Shown here: positions 673 to 60,544 of the stretch, one piece after another
Layout: every line of letters starts with the position of its first letter
How positions within the stretch are numbered: the first letter of the stretch is position 1
From: an uncultured archaeon
GTDB lineage: Archaea > Aenigmatarchaeota > Aenigmatarchaeia > QMZP01 > JACQNV01
Direction of reading: 5' to 3'
DNA length: 64,000 nt
Assembly: GCA_964410585.1 (NCBI GenBank)
Contig: CAYPFW010000002.1
Coordinates: 78,207-142,206, forward strand
Notes under the pieces: model-generated
What the model saw: the letters and a program-made list of their open reading frames with translations, nothing else
Databases searched by the model: none
Told to the model about the DNA's origin: nothing
Program-made: the position numbers and the translations under genes

Positions 673-1074
673 GCTGCAGCAAAAGGCAAATGTTTTAGAT
701 TTTATTTTTTTTCTATAGCCGCCCTGATAAACCTTGCATGCGCAGTGTGCGCATTCTGTGAGTTTTGGTTCAATTGCAATTTCTATAAGATTGTCAAATT
801 TTGCCAGCAAATTTTTTACAAATGCTCTCCCCTGTGGAGTTAGAGTATATATTTTTTTATCTCTGTTACCTAGATCCTTTGAGAGTATGTATCTTTCGTT
901 TTCAAGCTTTCTCAAAAATGGATAAACGTTTCCGGCACTTATTTTTTTCTTCAACCTGCCTTCAAGGTTTTTGATTATTTCGTATCCATGTTTTGGTTTT
1001 TCGTTCAATAGAAGCAAAGTGTAAAGTTTAGTCAAACTCGTCATGTTTTCTAGAGAATCCTTTGTCCTTACCAT
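649..1074 (-). CDS. PadR-family winged-helix regulator fused to a C-terminal TRASH/YHS-like metal-binding domain
   Basis: The N-terminal region matches the PadR signature (KHGYEI...NVYPFLRKLE). The C-terminus CAHCAC-x19-FCCSSCAKSF matches the TRASH pattern C-x2-C-x19-C-C-x2-C. The gene is divergent from copA. Start chosen at the Met at 1074; alternative starts are 1044 or 1152. Confidence 0.6.
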   Translation of the reverse strand: MVRTKDSLENMTSLTKLYTLLLLNEKPKHGYEIIKNLEGRLKKKISAGNVYPFLRKLENERYILSKDLGNRDKKIYTLTPQGRAFVKNLLAKFDNLIEIAIEPKLTECAHCACKVYQGGYRKKIKSKTFAFCCSSCAKSFR

Positions 1075-4362: not shown

Positions 4363-5118
4363 CTAATTTTTGTTTTCGTATTTCCTGATTTTAGCTCTTG
4401 CTGATCTGACATGTTTCTTGGTTTTTTGGACAGAAGCTGCGAAAGAATCAGCTTTCCTCTCTTCTTCTGTTCTCAAATGATGGAATTTTACAAGAGTTGA
4501 CATTGGGGAAAGGAACCTAAAAAATGTCAAGGATAGTTTTAGGGCAGATGTCTTCTCTTTTATGTGTGCAAGTTCGTGGAGAATAACAGCCTCTAATTCC
4601 TTCCTATTTAATATATCGAAAAGACCAACTGAAAGGAAGATGGCTGATTTGAAATGTCTGAAGGAAAAGGCAAGCGGATTGGCTTTGTCCAATGCGAAAA
4701 CTTTGGGCGGCCTTATATTTAGGTTTTTAGATGATTTTTTGATGAAACTCAATACCCATCCAGATTTTATCTGCCTCTCATTGTTTGTTTTTACATAGTA
4801 TAGTGGGATCACTATAAACCCAACCAAAGTTGATACCAAAAGCGTTGCAGGGAGCGACAGCAGTAGAAGGTTTACAAAATTGTTTGGTCCAGTATAGCAA
4901 CTAGAAACACAGAGCATGCCGCATGTTGTTTGTGTTGTGAAGAGCATGAGTGGATACAAAAGGAAAACAAGATGGGAATACAAAATAACTATTCTAGATT
5001 TGTTGGAAAAGCTAAGCCTTTTCAGCAAAAAAATAAGCGAAACAGCAAATGATATGGATAGAATTGAAAGTACAATTTTCGCCGGGTCTACAACTAGGCC
5101 AAAAAAACACCCTACCAT
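4363..5118 (-). CDS. BlaR1/M56-like membrane zinc metalloprotease (signal-transducer protease domain, no sensor domain)
   Basis: Several TM helices, then the HExxH motif (HELAHIKE) in the M56/M48 context. It lies immediately downstream of a BlaI-family repressor gene. Confidence 0.6.
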   Translation of the reverse strand: MVGCFFGLVVDPAKIVLSILSISFAVSLIFLLKRLSFSNKSRIVILYSHLVFLLYPLMLFTTQTTCGMLCVSSCYTGPNNFVNLLLLSLPATLLVSTLVGFIVIPLYYVKTNNERQIKSGWVLSFIKKSSKNLNIRPPKVFALDKANPLAFSFRHFKSAIFLSVGLFDILNRKELEAVILHELAHIKEKTSALKLSLTFFRFLSPMSTLVKFHHLRTEEERKADSFAASVQKTKKHVRSARAKIRKYENKN

Positions 5119-5148
5119 TTGCTAACCTCTTTATTTTCAATTGTATAT

Positions 5149-5206
5149 CGTTTCTCTTTGGGTACGGTATACTTTCTCTTTTTGAAAGAGAAAGGATAGC
5201 TCTACT
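5149..5206 (+). ncRNA. Copy A of a repeated intergenic element: 5' box TTTCTCTTTGGGTACGGTAT, a 10-bp hairpin CTTTCTCTTT/AAAGAGAAAG, and a 3' box GGATAGCTC
   Basis: Conserved ends shared with copies at 45038, 52489, 57647 and (opposite strand) 16098. The hairpin shows compensatory changes (CTC/GAG) relative to copy B (T/A). It lies between the blaI stop and the blaR1 start. Confidence 0.45.
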
Positions 5207-5576: not shown

Positions 5577-5711
5577 ATCTGTTTATAATTCGCAGTAAAC
5601 TATTTAAGCTTTACAAATAATGTAAAGTATTTAAACACAAGCACCAAATATTAGATCAATACAAGCTTTACAAATTTTGTAAATATATCCCAAGAAAACT
5701 AATATGCATTT

Positions 5712-8438: not shown

Positions 8439-8895
8439 TATGTCAGCAAAAATTTTAGTGATTAGTTCAATTGTTTTCCTTCTACTTATTTCAATAGGAA
8501 TACCTTTACAGCTTCAGCAAACTCAGACACAAAATTTTGAATTTGATAAACCAGTTGATGTTGTCACAAAATATTTTGAATCTTGGGATAAAAAAAATTG
8601 GGTTGAAATGTATTCCACAATTTCAGACGGATTTAAGAAAATAGAACCAACTGCACAAACTTTGGCTGATTTCAGAGAATATTCAGAGTCCCAGGCAATA
8701 GGTGGAGTACGAGTAATTTCGATAAATGAAAAATCAAATGATGGAAAGACAGCCGTTGTTGATTATTCAGTTGAATTCGAAACAAGTAAATGGAATAAAT
8801 TTGAAGGTACATTTACTTTGAAATTTAGACAGGGTGATATAATTCGGGGATGGAAGCTCATACACCCATATGGAAATAACGTTGATACATCATAA
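8416..8895 (+). CDS. Hypothetical membrane-anchored protein (true start may be the Met at 8440)
   Basis: N-terminal TM (ILVISSIVFLLLISIGI) followed by a soluble domain. No motif recognised. Confidence 0.35.
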   Translation: MQPLSTNDMSAKILVISSIVFLLLISIGIPLQLQQTQTQNFEFDKPVDVVTKYFESWDKKNWVEMYSTISDGFKKIEPTAQTLADFREYSESQAIGGVRVISINEKSNDGKTAVVDYSVEFETSKWNKFEGTFTLKFRQGDIIRGWKLIHPYGNNVDTS

Positions 8896-13393: not shown

Positions 13394-16105
13394 ATGAAAT
13401 GTCCTTTTTGCAGTCATCCAGAAACAAAGGTTATAGATAAAAGAGAGTCTGAAGAAGACTCAAACAGAAGAAGAAGGGAATGCCTTTCATGTGGCAAGCG
13501 CTTCACAACATACGAAAAGCTTGAGTTAAGCTCATCCAAAAAAGTCGACAAATTAGTGAAAAGAGATGGAAGAATAGCTGATTTTGATGCCTCAAGAATA
13601 GAGTCTGCAATTTTCAAGGCAGCAAAGGCAGTTGGTGGTACTGATAGAGAAAGGGCAAAAAAACTAGCAGACGAAGTAATGGAGCAAGTCAACAAAAAGT
13701 TCCTAGGGAAAAAAGACCTCCCAACAGTAGAAGACATCCAAGACATTGTTGAAAAAGTCCTCATCGAAAATGGTCATGCAAAAACAGCAAAGGCCTACAT
13801 CATTTACAGGCAAGAGCGTGCAGAGCTAAGAAATGAAAAAAGAAGAATCTTGGAAAAAGAAGATGTTGACGATGTTGACAAAGTTTTCGACCTAAATGCA
13901 CTTAGAGTTTTGAAATCCAGATATTTGCGAAAAGACGAAAACGGCAAGCTAATCGAAACCCCAAAGCAACTTTTTACTAGGGTAGCAACACATGGAGCGC
14001 TTCCAGATATTTTGTATGACCCTCAATTATACGACATCTCAAAATCTCAGCAACAGCACCCAAAAGAATCTTTCGATCCAAAAACAAACCACGAAAAATA
14101 CAGCATAGGAAAATACAAACTAAACCAATATCACCTGGATGCTTTCAAAAGAATGTATGATAGGTTCAACAAAAATCACCAAATGAAATTCTCATGGTCC
14201 CAGGTTTTGGAAAAGCTTTCAAAAGGTGAACTAAGTTCTTATGAAAAAAATATCACAGAGTTCTATGACATAATGGTCAACAGACAGTTCATGCCAAACA
14301 CACCGGCTATAGCTAATTTTGGAACAGTTCTAGGAATGGGCTCTGCTTGCTTTGTTTTGGGAATAAGAGACTCAATAGACGATATAATGGAAAAATTAAA
14401 ACATGCAGCAGTCATCTTCAAATCAGGCGGCGGAGTCGGCTACAACTTCTCACACCTAAGGCCTGAAGGCGATTTGGTTTCTTCAACATGCGGTCTTGCA
14501 TCTGGTCCCTTGTCTTTCATGTCTATGTTCGACAAAATGACAGAGGTCATCAAACAAGGTGGTATTCGCCGAGGCGCAAACATGGGAATAATGAACTCAG
14601 ATCACCCAGATATTGAAAAATTCATAACAGCAAAAGCAGGCAACAAGGCCTTCAAAAACTTCAACATCTCAGTAAATATCCAACCAGACTTTTGGCAATA
14701 CTATGAAAAAAATGAGCCCTATCCTTTAAGAAATCCAAGAGACGGAACAGTTGTCAAAACAGTTAATTCACGGATGCTTTTTGACAAAATAGTTTACCAG
14801 GCATGGGAATCAGCAGAGCCAGGAGTCATCTTTTCAGACAAAGTAAATGAATACAATCCTTTATACGAATCAATGGGCCCAATTGAAACAACAAATCCTT
14901 GCGGTGAGGTACTCTTGTATCCAAACGAGTCATGCAACCTAGGATCAATAAACGTCTGGGCTTTTGTCAAAGAAGATGTGGATGGAAATGTTTCCTTTGA
15001 TTGGGAAAACTTAGCCCGCGTCTCTCGGTTAGGAGAAAAATTCCTGGACAATGTCATCGAAGTAAACAAGTGGCCTCTACAAGACATAGAAGACATGGCC
15101 TTGAACACAAGAAAAACAGGCCTTGGTGTCATGGGAGTTGGCGACCTTTTGTATGAATTAGGTCTTCCTTATAATACAGATGAAGGCAGAAACTTCATGG
15201 AGAGGCTGATGGAATTTGTCAACTTCTACTCAAAAGTCGAAGGCATCGAACTTGCAAGAACAAGAGGACCTTTCCTATACTACGACAAAAGCTTCTATTC
15301 TGAAGGTAAGCTTCCTTTTGCTGGTTTCTACGACAAAAAATCCTGGAGAATGGACTGGAACCAAATAGTCGACGGCGTCCAAAAACATGGAGTAAGGAAT
15401 GCATTCACAATTGTCGTCGCTCCAACAGGATCAATATCAATGATAGCAGGCTGCTCTTCAGGCATTGAACCTGTCTATTCTTTGGTTTTCGAGAAAAATG
15501 TGAAAGTCGGTTCCTTCTACTATGTGAATCCTATATTCGAAAAATGGATGAGAAGAGAAGGCTTATTCGACGAAAAACTAGTAGAAGATGTAAATGCAAA
15601 CAAAGGAACAGTCAGAAGAGTCGGCTATATTCCAAGAAAATTCAAGGAAATGTTTATCACAGCAATGGACACAACGCCAGAAGACCATATAAGAGCCTTG
15701 GCAGCATTCCAAAAATGGGTTGACTCATCGATCTCAAAAACAAACAACTTCCCGGCAGATGCAACAGTTGAGGATATGAGACAATCTTATCTCCTTGCAT
15801 ACAAGCTAGGATGCAAAGATGTAACTGTGTTTAGAGACACATCAATAAAGGACCAGGTCTTGGTTTCAGGCGTTAAAAAGTCTGAAAAACACGCAGCTGA
15901 CACTGGTTTGAAACCTCAGTTAGGAAAAGAATGGACACCAGAACAACCAATAGCAGTTTCAACAAGTGGTAGTTTCTACCAACAACCAAAAGTAACTACA
16001 AACTTTGGGGAAAAGCCAAAAGTCTGCCCATCTTGTGGATCTGAAACCAAAAGAGAAGAAGGCTGTGTATCTTGCCCTGGCTGCGGTTGGGGCATGTGTA
16101 GCTAG
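13394..16105 (+). CDS. nrdJ: Class II (adenosylcobalamin-dependent) ribonucleotide reductase NrdJ with an N-terminal NrdR-like zinc ribbon plus ATP-cone and a C-terminal zinc ribbon
   Basis: N-terminus MKCPFCSHPETKVIDKRES...RRRECLSCGKRFTTYE matches the NrdR Zn ribbon; ATP-cone (VKRDGRIADFDASRIESAI). Catalytic core hallmarks: NPCGE (nt region 14881-14941), the LGSIN context, and the C-terminal CPSCGS...CVSCPGCG ribbon. Length 903 aa. Confidence 0.85.
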   Translation: MKCPFCSHPETKVIDKRESEEDSNRRRRECLSCGKRFTTYEKLELSSSKKVDKLVKRDGRIADFDASRIESAIFKAAKAVGGTDRERAKKLADEVMEQVNKKFLGKKDLPTVEDIQDIVEKVLIENGHAKTAKAYIIYRQERAELRNEKRRILEKEDVDDVDKVFDLNALRVLKSRYLRKDENGKLIETPKQLFTRVATHGALPDILYDPQLYDISKSQQQHPKESFDPKTNHEKYSIGKYKLNQYHLDAFKRMYDRFNKNHQMKFSWSQVLEKLSKGELSSYEKNITEFYDIMVNRQFMPNTPAIANFGTVLGMGSACFVLGIRDSIDDIMEKLKHAAVIFKSGGGVGYNFSHLRPEGDLVSSTCGLASGPLSFMSMFDKMTEVIKQGGIRRGANMGIMNSDHPDIEKFITAKAGNKAFKNFNISVNIQPDFWQYYEKNEPYPLRNPRDGTVVKTVNSRMLFDKIVYQAWESAEPGVIFSDKVNEYNPLYESMGPIETTNPCGEVLLYPNESCNLGSINVWAFVKEDVDGNVSFDWENLARVSRLGEKFLDNVIEVNKWPLQDIEDMALNTRKTGLGVMGVGDLLYELGLPYNTDEGRNFMERLMEFVNFYSKVEGIELARTRGPFLYYDKSFYSEGKLPFAGFYDKKSWRMDWNQIVDGVQKHGVRNAFTIVVAPTGSISMIAGCSSGIEPVYSLVFEKNVKVGSFYYVNPIFEKWMRREGLFDEKLVEDVNANKGTVRRVGYIPRKFKEMFITAMDTTPEDHIRALAAFQKWVDSSISKTNNFPADATVEDMRQSYLLAYKLGCKDVTVFRDTSIKDQVLVSGVKKSEKHAADTGLKPQLGKEWTPEQPIAVSTSGSFYQQPKVTTNFGEKPKVCPSCGSETKREEGCVSCPGCGWGMCS

Positions 16106-16228
16106 CCTTTTCCGGCAGTCCCCGCTTGCTCAAAAGGCTCGTGTCTCCAACTAGCAGAGTGAACTGTTAATAGTTCACAGACATCTCTGCATCATCTCCC
16201 GAGAGATGCAGATACCGTACCCAAAAAA
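16098..16228 (-). ncRNA. Copy E of the repeated intergenic element (reverse orientation) with a GC-rich insert of about 100 nt between the conserved ends
   Basis: On the minus strand the 5' end reads TTTTTTGGGTACGGTAT (plus 16212-16228) and the 3' end reads GAAAAGGCTAGC (plus 16098-16112, overlapping the RNR stop codon). The interior is GC-rich with hairpins (TCTGCATC...GATGCAGA). Confidence 0.4.
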
Positions 16229-16354
16229 CTACATTACAAAAGTGGAAGGCGTAATTTTTTCGAGCTTGCAAGCGAAGAAAAAATAGCCTCATGTTTTGGT
16301 TAAGCTTTTGGATAAAAGGTTAAGTCTGGGGTTCTCATCCAAAAAGAAAAAGTT

Positions 16355-44882: not shown

Positions 44883-45037
44883 ATGGTTAATAATTGTTCA
44901 GTGTATATAAATAATTTCTGATGATCATTCGACTAAAAAATAAAAAATCCCGGGAGTGAGACACTCGAAAAGTTGGTAAACCAACAATTTATCGAATTCG
45001 TGGCTCAGTTCTTTGAACAGACCGCTTATGTATAATA

Positions 45038-45090
45038 GTTTTCTTTGGGTACGGTAGACTTTCTTTTTCTAAAAGAAAGGCTAGCACTCA
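45038..45090 (+). ncRNA. Copy B of the repeated intergenic element: 5' box TTTTCTTTGGGTACGGTAGA, 9-bp hairpin CTTTCTTTT/AAAAGAAAG (loop TCT), 3' box GCTAGCACTC; followed by a 110-nt GC-rich stretch (45091-45200)
   Basis: Near-identical ends to copies A, D and E. The adjacent GC-rich segment contains long-range complementary blocks (TATCGG/CCGATCG). Confidence 0.45.
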
Positions 45091-45272
45091 CGACCTATCG
45101 GTGTCTGAACGATTGCGTTTGGCAAATGCTAAACTGCACGCGCCTACAGCCGATCGCTCTAAGCCACTGGGCTACCCCGGGATTGTATTATTTGCAACGA
45201 GTGATTTATATTAGTTTTTGGATGAGCAACTCAATCAACGCTTTTAATCCAATATATTCAACTAATTATATG

Positions 45273-52478: not shown

Positions 52479-52488
52479 ATTTGAATAT

Positions 52489-52533
52489 TATTTTTCTTTA
52501 TGTACGGCTCTCTTTCTTTTTCTAAAAGAAATA
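52489..52533 (+). ncRNA. Copy C of the repeated intergenic element (degenerate: TTTTTCTTTATGTACGGCTC plus 8-bp hairpin TTTCTTTT/AAAAGAAA)
   Basis: Matches copy B over CTTTCTTTTTCTAAAAGAAA; the 3' box is lost. It sits 11-55 bp upstream of the truD start. Confidence 0.35.
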
Positions 52534-52537
52534 ATAA

Positions 52538-57252: not shown

Positions 57253-57609
57253 TCAATTTGCTCTTTTTAAATGTTTTTTGGCTGCTTTTTCCCTCCTATA
57301 AGGAAATCTTATCTTTTTTCCGCATTCTTTGCACAAAACTTCAACTGCTTTCTGTTTAGTGTTTGCCCTGTGCACAGAGTTTACCCCAGGGACAAGATAG
57401 GATTTGCAGTGTTTGCAAAATTTTCTTTTGAGTTCTTTTTGAATCTTGACATTGTATCTCATGCCAATTTTTCTGGCCAATTCAACATACCTGTTTGCAT
57501 ATTTTTTGTTTTCCTTGAATTCTTTTTCAGCTAAATCGAAAAGGATTGCTATTCTTTCTTTTGCTATGTCTGTTTGCCATTTTGGCTTATCTCTATTTCT
57601 GCGATCCAT
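57253..57609 (-). CDS. rnp4: RNase P protein subunit Rpp21 (Rpr2/RNP4)
   Basis: Zinc ribbon CKHCKSY...CKECGKK and a basic N-terminal helix. Confidence 0.7.
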   Translation of the reverse strand: MDRRNRDKPKWQTDIAKERIAILFDLAEKEFKENKKYANRYVELARKIGMRYNVKIQKELKRKFCKHCKSYLVPGVNSVHRANTKQKAVEVLCKECGKKIRFPYRREKAAKKHLKRAN

Positions 57610-57646: not shown

Positions 57647-57930
57647 GTTTTCTTTGGGGTACCTTACCACTTTCTTTTTCGTGTCTCCTCTTTGCAAAGT
57701 TGACACGAGATCAGTGTCTCAGCAATGCAATGGACACTGAGACATCTCATCATCCAATATACTCTGTGAGATGCTGATTGAGTGAGCAACAGCGAACTCC
57801 TGATACAGAAACTGATCCGCAGATCAGTTTCCAGCTACGACTGTGCTCACTGCTCATGTGCTGTTGCACATGACATCTCGTCATCTCTTACACCGGCGAG
57901 ATGCCGATCTAAAAGAAAGGGGTTAGACTC
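57647..57930 (+). ncRNA. Copy D of the repeated element: conserved ends (TTTTCTTTGGGGTACCTTACCACTTTCTTTTTC ... TCTAAAAGAAAGGGGTTAGACTC) enclosing a 227-nt GC-rich structured insert (57681-57907)
   Basis: The two hairpin arms of the short copies are here separated by an insert rich in inverted repeats (GTGTCTCAGCAATGCAATGGACACTGAGAC) and two GACATCTC(A/G)TCATC motifs. The supplied ORF 57782-58024 lies inside and is considered spurious. Confidence 0.45.
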
Positions 57931-59763: not shown

Positions 59764-59850
59764 AGCCCCAAGGGAGAATTGAACTCCCAACCTACAGTTT
59801 ACGAAAATCGACATACAAATTCTGTCGCTCTACCATTGAGCTACTGAGGC
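59764..59850 (-). tRNA. tRNA-Thr (anticodon CGU) interrupted by a 15-nt intron at the non-canonical position 30/31
   Basis: Exon 1 = 59822-59850, intron = 59807-59821 (AATTTGTATGTCGAT), exon 2 = 59764-59806. The spliced product has anticodon stem ACAGT/ACTGT, loop TTCGTAA, T-loop TTCAATT, discriminator U. The splice sites sit in 3-nt bulges (AG^A and AT^T) flanking a perfect 4-bp helix CGAC/GTCG (relaxed BHB). Confidence 0.7.
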
Positions 59851-60413: not shown

Positions 60414-60544
60414 TGCGCTAGCCGAGATTCGAACTCGGGTCACAGCCTTGGCAAGGTTATACACTTCTTGAATTTTTCTTAAAGTTCTGTATTCTACCAA
60501 GGTACAAACCTTTTTACAGAAAAGGCTTACTATACTACTAGCGC
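60414..60544 (-). tRNA. tRNA-like locus with intact acceptor/T-arm ends but about 55 extra internal nucleotides (multi-intron tRNA, isotype unresolved, or a pseudo-tRNA)
   Basis: 5' end GCGCTAG-TA-GTAT; 3' end CCGAG-TTCGAAT-CTCGG-CTAGCGC-A with perfect 7-bp acceptor complementarity. A candidate D-loop intron (minus-strand nt 16-45 of the locus) gives D-arm GTAT-AGTGGTAGA-ATAC and a BHB-like helix GTAT/GTAC followed by a 9-bp intron hairpin. The anticodon region could not be resolved with a single further intron. Confidence 0.4.

Follow-up and report, generated by a model that had tools for sequence, protein, structure and literature searches.

The stretch of DNA analysed here (64,000 nt, hereafter the window) harbors, directly downstream of the ribonucleotide reductase gene nrdJ, copy E of a recurring element whose features are listed in Table 1. 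The nrdJ product carries an NrdR-type zinc ribbon and an ATP-cone (Pfam) at its N-terminus, and since its C-terminus ..GWGMCS agrees with that of relatives, the reading frame is not continued beyond the element. As had been proposed from inspection of the sequence, one box of the element overlaps the TAG stop codon, which lies within GCTAGCC, and the interior (16113-16211) is GC-rich, with 51.5% compared to 36.6% for the window, and contains a strong hairpin. The second box was likewise found on the minus strand, but it matches copy A at 15 instead of all 17 positions. ARAGORN, with and without its intron option, detected neither a tRNA nor an intron-bearing tRNA in copy E.

Table 1. Position of copy E, its parts, and further copies of cassette and module in the window.
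Feature	Position	Strand	Remarks
nrdJ ORF	13394..16105	+	class II (B12-dependent) ribonucleotide reductase (Pfam domains, homologue names)
nrdJ stop codon TAG	16103..16105	+	
Box GCTAGCC	16101..16107	+	opens the terminator-like hairpin cassette of copy E
Box GAAAAGGCTAGC	16101..16112	-	overlaps the nrdJ stop codon
U/A-tract hairpin	16104..16139	+	AGCCTTTT, 20-nt GC-rich loop, AAAAGGCT; from folding and comparison with copies A, C and L004
Module, copy E	16139..16214	-	76 nt; UAUCUGCAUCUC..GAUGAUGCAGAGAUGUC, then hairpin GUGAACU..AGUUCAC, then GGAGACACGA
Module hairpin 2	16159..16178		GTGAACT GTTAAT AGTTCAC; homologous hairpin in L078
Module hairpin 1	16186..16212		TCTGCATC A TCT CCCG AGA GATGCAGA; the strong hairpin predicted originally
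Box TTTTTTGGGTACGGTAT	16212..16228	-	ATACCGTACCCAAAAAA on the plus strand; part of the cassette; holds the recurrent CCCAAAGAAAAC-type tract
TA-rich stretch	16229..16242	+	CTACATTACAAAAG; follows the A-rich box
Second repeated hairpin	16245..16290		GGCGTAATTTTTTCGAGCTTGCAAGCGAAGAAAAAATAGCC; neighbour of copy E
Copy A	5142..5205	+	short module-free cassette between the genes for a BlaI-like repressor and an M48/BlaR1-like peptidase
Copy C	45029..45085	+	short module-free cassette in the interrupted T arm of a tRNA-Tyr-like gene (minus strand, 44948-45182)
Degenerate short cassette	52482..52537	+	between the eIF6 and TruD genes
Cassette hairpin of copy D	57655..57925		holds the copy D composite in its loop
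Copy D composite	57679..57909	-	about 231 nt; two module cores (57856-57909 and 57711-57779)

The boxes are part of a cassette with three components, namely the U/A-tract hairpin, the CCGTACCCAAA(G)AAAAC box, and a TA-rich stretch that follows the A-rich box in every copy (CTACATTACAAAAG in E; TATTATACA, GATATACAA, and TAGGATACA in the others). The window contains the core GGGTACGGTA at exactly three places, against an expectation of 0.45. In the short copies, the U/A-tract hairpin of copy E has its counterpart in the CCTTTCTTTT-AGA-AAAAGAAAG hairpin, and the GCTAGCC box also opens the inserts in the T arm of tRNA-Tyr (copy C) and in L075. Copies A, B, D, and E are located directly after stop codons, and with a U-tract hairpin right after the stop codon, at a position conserved in relatives, the flanks resemble intrinsic terminators. 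Within this recurring flank, no insert is present in copies A and C, while E harbors 76 nt and D about 231 nt, and the place of insertion differs as well, being the hairpin loop in D and the gap between box and hairpin in E. What had been taken for an insert of about 100 nt in copy E is composed of a 76-nt module, antisense to nrdJ, and of the cassette hairpin with its GC-rich loop. Copy E as a whole is not reversed as had been assumed: relative to the gene upstream, the boxes in A, C, D, and E all have the same polarity (stop codon, then hairpin, then CCGTACCCAAAGA), and only the inner module is inverted in E. The second repeated hairpin next to copy E has counterparts that adjoin modules in L071 and L067/L074.

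Comparison of the regions 3' of nrdJ revealed the U/A-tract hairpin, CCCAAAGAAAAC, and a TA-rich stretch with no insert in L004 (GW2011_AR5), and only the hairpin with looser A-rich boxes, again with no module, in two Aenigmarchaeota (L039 and L049). Among these three, the CCCAAAGAAAAC box is repeated in L004 only, and L049 carries an unrelated insert between hairpin and A-rich box. Neither hairpin nor module was detected after nrdJ in the two nearest relatives, L090 and L058 (89% and 75% protein identity), so that the expected recurrence of the boxes in related genomes holds for the more distant ones and fails in the closest. The module itself was absent after nrdJ from the loci of all 57 genomes fetched as well as from these two relatives, and the covariance model R1 found no copy in about 600 kb of nrdJ loci from the 57 genomes. 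Since distant relatives possess the cassette after nrdJ in its module-free form, the cassette is older than the module. Judging from these sequence comparisons, the flanking boxes would not be the mobile part, and carrier and cargo would have the opposite roles to those in the original prediction. A function of the box as promoter for the downstream gene was rejected as a general explanation, with the next gene being convergent in L004; in other copies, the TA-rich stretch is located 5-110 nt from an ATG.

On the minus strand at copy E, the module displays the layout RAUC-N-GCAUCUC..GAUGA-N'-GAGAUGUC-hairpin-GAGACACGA. Its ends (RAUC-N-GCAUCUC ... GAGACACGA) are conserved throughout the family and enclose anything from 2 to about 8 internal hairpins, and the sequence blocks between the stems (AUC, GAUGA, and the unpaired GAGAUGUC) are invariant. 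With R1, copy E reached 45.8 bits at an E-value of about 1e-11. L086, L069, and L078 are closest to it, and the plus strand of copy E folds with z = -4.1. Among 22 distinct module copies, 96.9% of cells were paired compared to 84.6% in shuffles, and 7 of 12 pairs revealed changes on both sides. None of 500 shuffles reached the covariation score or the paired fraction, two of 500 reached the number of double-changed pairs, and the signal collapsed when partner columns were slid. Compensatory differences also separate copy D from L071 (GGAAACTGATC/GATCAGTTTC vs GGAAGCTGATC/ATCAGCTTC). The module hairpins are thus under selection and are maintained via compensatory changes. A short motif supposed to be common to the inserts of D and E is shared in the gapped form GACATCTC-N0-3-RTCATC, which reads GAUGAY-N0-3-GAGAUGUC on the minus strand, but the 19-mer GACATCTCTGCATCATCTC occurs in E only, even if three mismatches are allowed. 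Since the gapped motif is on the plus strand in D as well as in E, with flanks of opposite orientation, the insert of E is inverted relative to the boxes.

R1 detected three copies in the window (E, D1, and D2) with 46-50 bits, the next matches being the reverse strand of D2 with 23.6 bits, the module being quasi-palindromic, and then one at 14 bits. Together with a metagenome scan for module loci using an exact 25-base pattern, 21 further R1 copies (loci L064-L089) were obtained from metagenome contigs of DPANN-like archaea. The three window copies are clearly diverged from one another and each is closer to a copy on another contig, which argues against a recent burst and would be expected of conserved paralogous RNAs. 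Copy D and L071 share a stretch of about 230 nt with 81% identity next to different genes, and the identity breaks off sharply at ATC.. and ..CACGAAAAAG. Compared to empty cassettes, copy D corresponds to a short cassette with the insert exactly in the hairpin loop and the target not duplicated (CTTTTAG, insert, AAAAAGAAAG). Likewise, L085 and L087 have a unit of roughly 115 nt with about 95% identity in common upstream of different genes, and L064 and L068 one of 102 nt with 95% identity in the T arm and the anticodon loop, respectively, of different tRNA genes; quite different flanks were also seen in L078, L065/L089, and L071. The original prediction of variable cargo is borne out as far as inserts of different size recur in one flank and the insert of E has the opposite orientation to that of D; as the cargo is a conserved, sharply bounded family that is also present on other contigs, the inserts are copies of one module family and not different cargo.

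Module copies are located within or adjacent to U/A-tract hairpins, and both orientations occur: E, L077, and L069 run antisense to the genes that flank them, and D, L086, and L071 are sense. All five copies in tRNA genes and about 12 of 15 elsewhere are sense, an excess that hints at a role or constraint at the RNA level. Similar U-tracts on both sides were found only in the class of L081, L085, L087, and L072. The module ends GATCNGCATCTC and GAGACACNGATC form imperfect inverted repeats (10/12 in D2) that are weak overall, and the 3' GATC is missing from many copies. No consistent target sequence was detected at the left junction (TTAG, TGGG, GAAA, CTAA, AAGA, CGGT, and others), and no transposase domain in the neighbouring proteins checked. 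A search of the window against Rfam 15 (4227 families) at gathering thresholds resulted in two tRNAs only; the E region gave only chance matches at E<=10, the D region a best match to sR9 with 15 bits (threshold 36), and twelve homologous loci a single tRNA. A viral, plasmid, or phage origin was rejected, with BLAST against phages and plasmids resulting in no match and the IMG/VR pattern scan hitting one phage family alone, in an AT-rich iteron context and, by rough estimate, at the rate expected by chance. In the full-text literature, we found no description of the module.

The best explanation, to which we assign about an even chance, is that copy E is a terminator-like nrdJ 3' cassette into which a single copy of a short, hairpin-rich, non-coding module was inserted, the module being a non-autonomous mobile element of the REP/BIME, BOX, or MITE kind and akin to "transposed" archaeal tRNA introns. 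As in repeat elements generally, the module occurs several times, lacks coding capacity, and shows homology that ends sharply between unrelated flanks. It would most likely move as DNA, entering the single-stranded loops of DNA hairpins with no duplication of the target, and copies would persist only at harmless sites such as untranslated regions and introns that are spliced out. Once inserted, the module would be co-transcribed with its host gene, and since its stems are near-perfect Watson-Crick palindromes, either strand could fold. The nrdJ mRNA would hence gain three stable hairpins directly after its stop codon, which, by analogy with REP elements, would probably act as a 3'-end barrier or stabiliser. 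If mobile, the module would represent the first family of small structured repeats to be defined in DPANN archaea and a traceable marker of insertion events in very small genomes; it also accounts for GC-rich, RNA-like islands 3' of stop codons with no Rfam match.

The main rival, which we regard as possible but rather less than probable, takes the module for a structured small RNA with a function of its own, be it as a gene or as a cis-acting domain. This RNA would have its own promoter or be released from introns or untranslated regions, e.g., by the splicing endonuclease and possibly in circular form, and would act via its invariant single-stranded bases (RAUC, GAUGA, GAGAUGUC), e.g., by protein binding. 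On this view, copy E would form a small transcription unit that converges with nrdJ. The compensatory changes in both hairpins, inter-stem blocks that are invariant as in protein-binding RNAs, a GC content far above the genome average, and the enrichment of copies in tRNA introns, where they are always sense, are all consistent with such an RNA. Three distinct module sub-types (G, A, and U) are conserved across contigs, two mutually exclusive pairings of one 3' segment are both conserved in a switch-like manner, one of them with an invariant G-U pair, and several E-type copies have a TA-rich sequence 20-35 nt upstream. However, the folding energies sum up to -702 kcal/mol for the sense and -678 kcal/mol for the antisense strand, and G-U pairs are few on either, so that neither measure favours one strand as the transcribed one. 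Every gene next to E, L077, and L069 is opposite in strand to the module, with no recognisable promoter for these copies in a bacterial-type scan, the number of internal hairpins is variable, and bulge-helix-bulge motifs around E or D do not exceed chance. Furthermore, the absence of the module from the loci of 57 related genomes and from the closest nrdJ relatives makes it dispensable and patchy, and with matches to none of the 4227 Rfam families it would have to be a new RNA class.

On at least three contigs, the module was identified inside tRNA introns. The tRNA-Cys gene of L068 harbors a 127-nt intron at position 37/38 (ARAGORN) that contains it, and taking out the T-arm interval in L064 and L065 restored the tRNAs. 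These three loci show the features of bulge-helix-bulge introns, of which the module is only a part; as it occupies the loop of an inner hairpin, it is a passenger of the intron rather than the intron itself. The module could be the actual vehicle of archaeal tRNA-intron spread, i.e., a sequence-defined mobile unit that enters exposed hairpin loops (anticodon, T, terminator) and is retained by tRNA genes since the hairpin around it can serve as part of a bulge-helix-bulge substrate, with copy E representing the same element outside tRNA genes. We consider this unlikely as it stands, but it would, if true, provide the first concrete agent for an intron transposition so far inferred only from sequence similarity of introns. 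With near-identical copies in different tRNA genes and positions as well as in intergenic loops, intron gain in archaeal tRNA genes becomes testable by a specific sequence. For annotation, the module accounts for several tRNA genes missed by tRNA finders in such genomes.

According to the original prediction, the box-flanked element (GGGTACGGTAT ... GAAAAGGCTAGC) is itself mobile and carries different cargo in each copy. The overrepresented core and the same boxes on other contigs (L075, L069) are in favour of this model, and since the cassette occurs both in tRNA-gene interruptions (tRNA-Tyr of the window, L075) and after protein genes, it may also have spread. Nevertheless, a mobile cassette of this kind appears quite improbable: its position after nrdJ is held in distantly related genomes, the conserved cargo family also occurs with no boxes and is placed at two different sites of the cassette, and the gain or loss seen here concerns the inner module only. 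A role of copy E as a bulge-helix-bulge intron of the nrdJ transcript, or as a site where the tRNA-splicing endonuclease processes it, is very improbable despite modules within real tRNA introns (L068, L064, and L065) and a GCTAGCC box opening the T-arm insert in two tRNA genes, given that the nrdJ frame reaches its natural C-terminus upstream of the element and that a strict search, which also misses known relaxed introns, gave six candidates on the minus strand at E (mean 2.6 and maximum 7 for shuffled flanks) and none on the minus strand at D.

For the small mobile module favoured here, several known systems are available for comparison. Box C/D small RNAs of archaeal tRNA introns are similar with respect to their intronic site and a GAUGA-containing motif. 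Nevertheless, although GAUGA is invariant in the alignment, few module copies have the full C box RUGAUGA, a D box (CUGA) is not consistently present, the geometry of a kink-turn is not evident, and a perfect hairpin takes the place of the guide sequence between the boxes. Rfam C/D matches were at chance level, too. GAUGA and GTACGG were also inspected by eye as possible parts of a box C/D RNA, a kink-turn, a hammerhead, or a group II domain V, and these readings were dropped, their partner motifs being absent or inconsistent across copies.

Like MITEs and the IS200/IS605-derived PATEs of archaea, the module is small, non-autonomous, and multi-copy with sharp boundaries. As in IS200/IS605 derivatives and REP elements, hairpins lie near its ends, and neither target duplication nor long terminal inverted repeats are seen; two similar end hairpins in direct orientation (GCAUCUCG..CGAGAUGUC and UGUCUCG..CGAGACAC) add to this likeness. 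On the other hand, the left junction has no conserved tetra- or pentanucleotide, a parent insertion sequence or TnpA/TnpB gene was not found among the neighbouring proteins checked, the smallest copies comprise just 56 nt, and copy D lacks the target-site duplication of a MITE. As its terminal inverted repeats are weak and neither a consistent left-junction target nor a target-site duplication is seen, the module cannot be placed in any defined class of transposons.

Both the REP/BIME elements of enterobacteria and the BOX elements of Streptococcus pneumoniae consist of short palindromes, rich in GC and non-coding, that lie in intergenic regions near stop codons in both orientations and are co-transcribed, forming stable hairpins in the mRNA. 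BOX elements are built as boxA-boxB(n)-boxC, with conserved end modules and inner hairpins that vary in number. The module is likewise short, GC-rich, palindromic, modular, and found near stop codons in both orientations. In contrast to these elements, it is archaeal (DPANN) and has no sequence in common with them, no RAYT-type or other transposase has been linked to it, a conserved GTAG-type tetranucleotide is lacking, and it also occurs in tRNA introns and at low copy number (3 in 64 kb). It represents an undescribed hairpin-rich repeat family of tiny (DPANN) archaea.

Finally, Fujishima et al. (2010; summarised in PMC4090602) described "transposed" tRNA introns of Thermoproteales, and for Caldiarchaeum a mobile element is reported as the route by which introns were gained (PMC3293823). 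The pair L064 (T arm) and L068 (37/38), with its near-identical unit, resembles such introns, and the mechanism is presumed to act at the DNA level. The shared unit differs here in being a defined structured module that is also found after stop and before start codons and that, in a DPANN lineage, travels as a passenger within the intron. With copies inside tRNA introns, the module family may bear on the spread of archaeal tRNA introns.

The window originates from a low-GC archaeon whose tRNA genes harbor introns, and the top matches to its nrdJ gene, encoding a class II ribonucleotide reductase, were found in Woesearchaeota and other DPANN archaea (63–68% identity). Both boxes of E, the element copy following this gene, were located where the original prediction had placed them, including the overlap with the stop codon, as the deduced protein ends with ..GWGMCS and the TAG lies within GCTAGCC. 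The interior was likewise GC-rich (51.5% in 16113-16211 vs. 36.6% in the window), while the E box matched copy A, another copy in the window, at 15 instead of the claimed 17 of 17 positions. E folded well on both strands (z = -4.1 for the plus and -2.1 for the minus strand). Within the GC-rich loop of its hairpin (16112-16131), the 3' portion (CTGCCGGAAAAGG) is identical to the terminal stretch of another hairpin insert, found in the metagenomic locus L066 (809-821); this weak match of 13 nt may mark what is left of a further inserted unit. Directly beside E, at 16245-16290, lies another repeated hairpin, GGCGTAATTTTTTCGAGCTTGCAAGCGAAGAAAAAATAGCC; homologues lie beside modules in L071 (about 780-830, minus strand) and L067 (665-720, minus strand), and its exact 17-mer AAAAATTACGCCTTCCA is present in L067/L074.

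Features of the nrdJ locus, composite copy D and interrupted tRNA genes in the window
Feature	Position	Strand	Basis or remarks
Class II ribonucleotide reductase ORF with NrdR-type zinc ribbon and ATP-cone	13394..16105	+	ORF, domains
Hairpin AGCCTTTT[20 nt]AAAAGGCT	16104-16139	read on +	first part of E downstream of ORF
GC-rich 76-nt stretch (module)	16139-16214	read on +	after hairpin
Box ATACCGTACCCAAAAAAC	16212-16229	read on +	after 76-nt stretch
TA-rich stretch	after ATACCGTACCCAAAAAAC box	read on +	last part of E
Gene downstream of E	start 16355		
Fifth copy (D)	57655-57925		
Unannotated tRNA-Tyr(GUA)-like gene	44948-45182	-	acceptor CCCGGGG/TCCCGGG-A, then T-run
Third interrupted tRNA	60414-60544	-	ARAGORN with intron option; acceptor GCGCTAG/CTAGCGC, T arm normal

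When oriented by the upstream gene, each copy displayed the same order of parts: the stop codon is followed by the U/A hairpin, then (T)ACCGTACCCAAAGA(A)AAC, then the TA-rich stretch, the last three hereafter called the cassette. Thus, E is not a reversed copy as first proposed; its inner part, however, is inverted, which had been correctly deduced from the strand of a motif common to D and E. As a 19-mer this motif was found in E only, whereas its gapped core GAUGAY-N0-3-GAGAUGUC is also present in D. A repeat search of the window connected 5142-5191, 45029-45078, and 52482-52531, and GGGTACGGTA occurred exactly three times (5160, 16213-16222 on the minus strand, and 45047) vs. 0.45 expected. 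Copy D consists of an empty, module-free cassette with an insert precisely in the hairpin loop, and a target duplication is absent. The cassette carries U tracts on both strands, lies in the window after stop codons or in tRNA-gene interruptions, and looks, by its sequence, like a two-way terminator-type hairpin. One isolated box copy without hairpin (CCCAAGAAAACTAATATGC, 5689-5711, plus strand) precedes the ATG of a gene for a 172-aa membrane protein by a few bases only. D itself lies directly upstream of the gene for the RNase P protein subunit Rpp21/Rpr2 (57253-57609, minus strand); according to Rfam, D is not an RNase P RNA, and none was detected in the whole window.

The predicted recurrence of the boxes after nrdJ was found in some relatives. 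In GW2011_AR5 (L004, 63% nrdJ identity), the gene is followed by hairpin and box (CCTTTCTTTT-GAA-AAAAGAAAG-TCCTCAAG-CCCAAAGAAAAC-ATATTAT), the module being absent; since the next gene is convergent, the box there is ruled out as a promoter of a downstream gene. In two Aenigmarchaeota (L039 and L049), the hairpin is present and A-rich boxes of a looser kind come after it, whereas in the nearest relatives, L090 (89% identity; 31 nt available after the stop) and L058 (75%), hairpin and module were absent after nrdJ, with CCCCAAAGAAAC alone retained in L058. On this comparison, the insert at the nrdJ 3' end is younger than its flanks. In L049, the position roughly equivalent to that of the module in E is taken by an unrelated hairpin insert. 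Judging from this insert (GTACCGCATTTGCACGCAAATGCTCGTAC), situated between hairpin and A-rich box just after the nrdJ stop and closed by GTAC/GTAC, a GTAC-closed hairpin may have collapsed to give the CCGTACCC box of the window, and the spot may be an insertion hot spot.

Alignment of E with both halves of D on the minus strand revealed a common block ATC-N-GCATCTC..GATGAY..GAGATGTC, followed by a hairpin and GGAGACACG. Scanning JGI metagenomes with this block resulted in 26 contigs, about 20 of them genuine (34–53% GC, identical architecture) and six representing chance matches in high-GC coding sequence. A covariance model (R1), built from the 12 shortest module copies and run with filters off, detected exactly three strong matches in the window, all on the minus strand: 57856-57909 (50.3 bits), 57711-57779 (45.8 bits), and 16139-16214 (45.8 bits). 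The next-best were the reverse strand of D2, one of the two module cores in D (23.6 bits, the module being quasi-palindromic), and a match of 14 bits. R1 also identified 21 further copies in the homologous loci L064-L089, whereas about 600 kb of sequence taken from 57 genomes with nrdJ gave no match. The smallest copies measured 56 nt with two hairpins and the largest about 260 nt with about eight, the end sequences being constant. No Rfam family matched E, D, or 12 homologous loci, phage and plasmid collections gave no module match, viral contigs yielded one phage family only, roughly at the estimated chance rate, and no description of the module was found in the full-text literature searched.

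In the two core helices of 22 distinct copies, 96.9% of cells were standard pairs vs. 84.6% in shuffles, and seven of 12 pairs changed on both sides; fitting the alignment to the model biases it towards the structure, yet A-U/G-C/U-A exchanges are plain in the raw sequences. The pairing signal was lost when partner columns were slid. For the first hairpin, two mutually exclusive registers, CNGCAUC/GAUGAN'G and GCAUCUCN/N'GAGAUGU, are both conserved. The stems are nearly all Watson-Crick with few G-U pairs, and both strands fold about equally (energy sums of -702 kcal/mol sense vs. -678 kcal/mol antisense). The module hairpins are under selection, and these data are compatible with RNA of one strand, RNA of both strands, or single-stranded DNA as its target.

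The module lay within the loop of a U/A-tract hairpin in D, L086, L075, L071, L083, L064/L068, and L069, and adjoined such a hairpin in E, L077, L069, L081, L085, L087, L072, and L066. In the last five loci, the repeated unit ends with ..AAAGAAAGGGCTGATATG, whose ATG serves five unrelated genes as start codon; they encode two membrane proteins, one MBL-fold-like hydrolase, and proteins that by eye resemble L39e and S26e. The element of this class apparently either borders the translation start or provides it. Relative to their flanking genes, E, L077, and L069 are antisense and all remaining copies sense. In L068, the module was found inside a 127-nt intron at position 37/38 of tRNA-Cys (ARAGORN); removal of the T-arm interval around it in L064 and L065 led to ARAGORN-detectable tRNAs, each with a second intron, and L067/L074 and L075 were judged by eye to be similarly located. 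Since in these introns, too, the module is placed in a hairpin loop, that of an inner hairpin, it is a passenger in the intron and not the intron itself.

The tRNA-Tyr(GUA)-like gene of the window, missed by standard ARAGORN and Rfam scans, harbors a 41-nt intron after position 37 and a T arm interrupted by roughly 120 nt starting with a module-free short cassette (approximate T-loop junction, marked by slashes, GTGAG-T/GCTAGCC ... TTCGAGTGT/CTCAC). As the 65-nt insert of the third interrupted tRNA again holds a U/A hairpin and GTACC (AAGCCTTTTCTGTAAAAAGGTTTGTACC), cassette-like sequence is common in the tRNA interruptions of this genome. Another tRNA (59764-59850, minus strand) remained ambiguous in identity, ARAGORN assigning Lys(UUU) without the intron option and Thr(CGU) plus a 15-nt intron with it; Rfam alignment placed a 24-nt insert in its anticodon region.

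Concerning mobility, D and L071 shared 81% identity over about 230 nt, ending abruptly at both borders between unrelated flanking genes, with part of the differences compensatory. L085 and L087 have a unit of about 115 nt in common (about 95% identity) upstream of different genes. A 102-nt unit (95% identity) is shared by L064 (about 4640-4770, minus strand), where it lies within the T arm of a tRNA gene, and L068 (about 8640-8745, plus strand), where the anticodon loop of tRNA-Cys contains it, a clear example of a single intron sequence occupying two sites in different tRNAs. Altogether, the module forms a family with conserved hairpins, sharp boundaries, and varied contexts and orientations, and is absent at the nrdJ site in relatives.

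The best supported reading, to which we give an even chance, is that E represents an ancestral nrdJ 3' hairpin cassette with an antisense insertion of a non-autonomous, hairpin-rich mobile module. Such modules would enter hairpin loops at the DNA level without target duplication and would survive in untranslated or spliced-out positions only, while the extra hairpins might act REP-like on the nrdJ 3' end. No mobilising enzyme was seen among the neighbouring proteins checked, and mobility is also contradicted by the lack of a consistent target sequence, the divergence among copies of the same genome, the sense-orientation bias, and the invariant unpaired bases. These weak points keep alive the main rival, a module acting as a functional small RNA, which we consider possible but clearly less probable. 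The original model, in which the box-flanked element is the mobile unit carrying variable cargo, appears unlikely. A splicing-endonuclease substrate at E is very improbable, as no motif above chance was found.

Compared to known systems, the family lacks the specific characteristics of box C/D RNAs and of all Rfam families. It differs from cut-and-paste MITEs by the absent target duplication and from IS200/IS605 or REP elements in that no conserved junction motif and no transposase were seen. However, it shows the general characteristics of repeat elements and resembles in behaviour bacterial REP/BIME and BOX elements as well as archaeal MITE- or PATE-type repeats. It is also similar to the 'transposed' tRNA introns of Thermoproteales, whose mechanism is described as unknown and presumed to operate on DNA (PMC4090602), and to Caldiarchaeum, where an intron was gained through a mobile element (PMC3293823).
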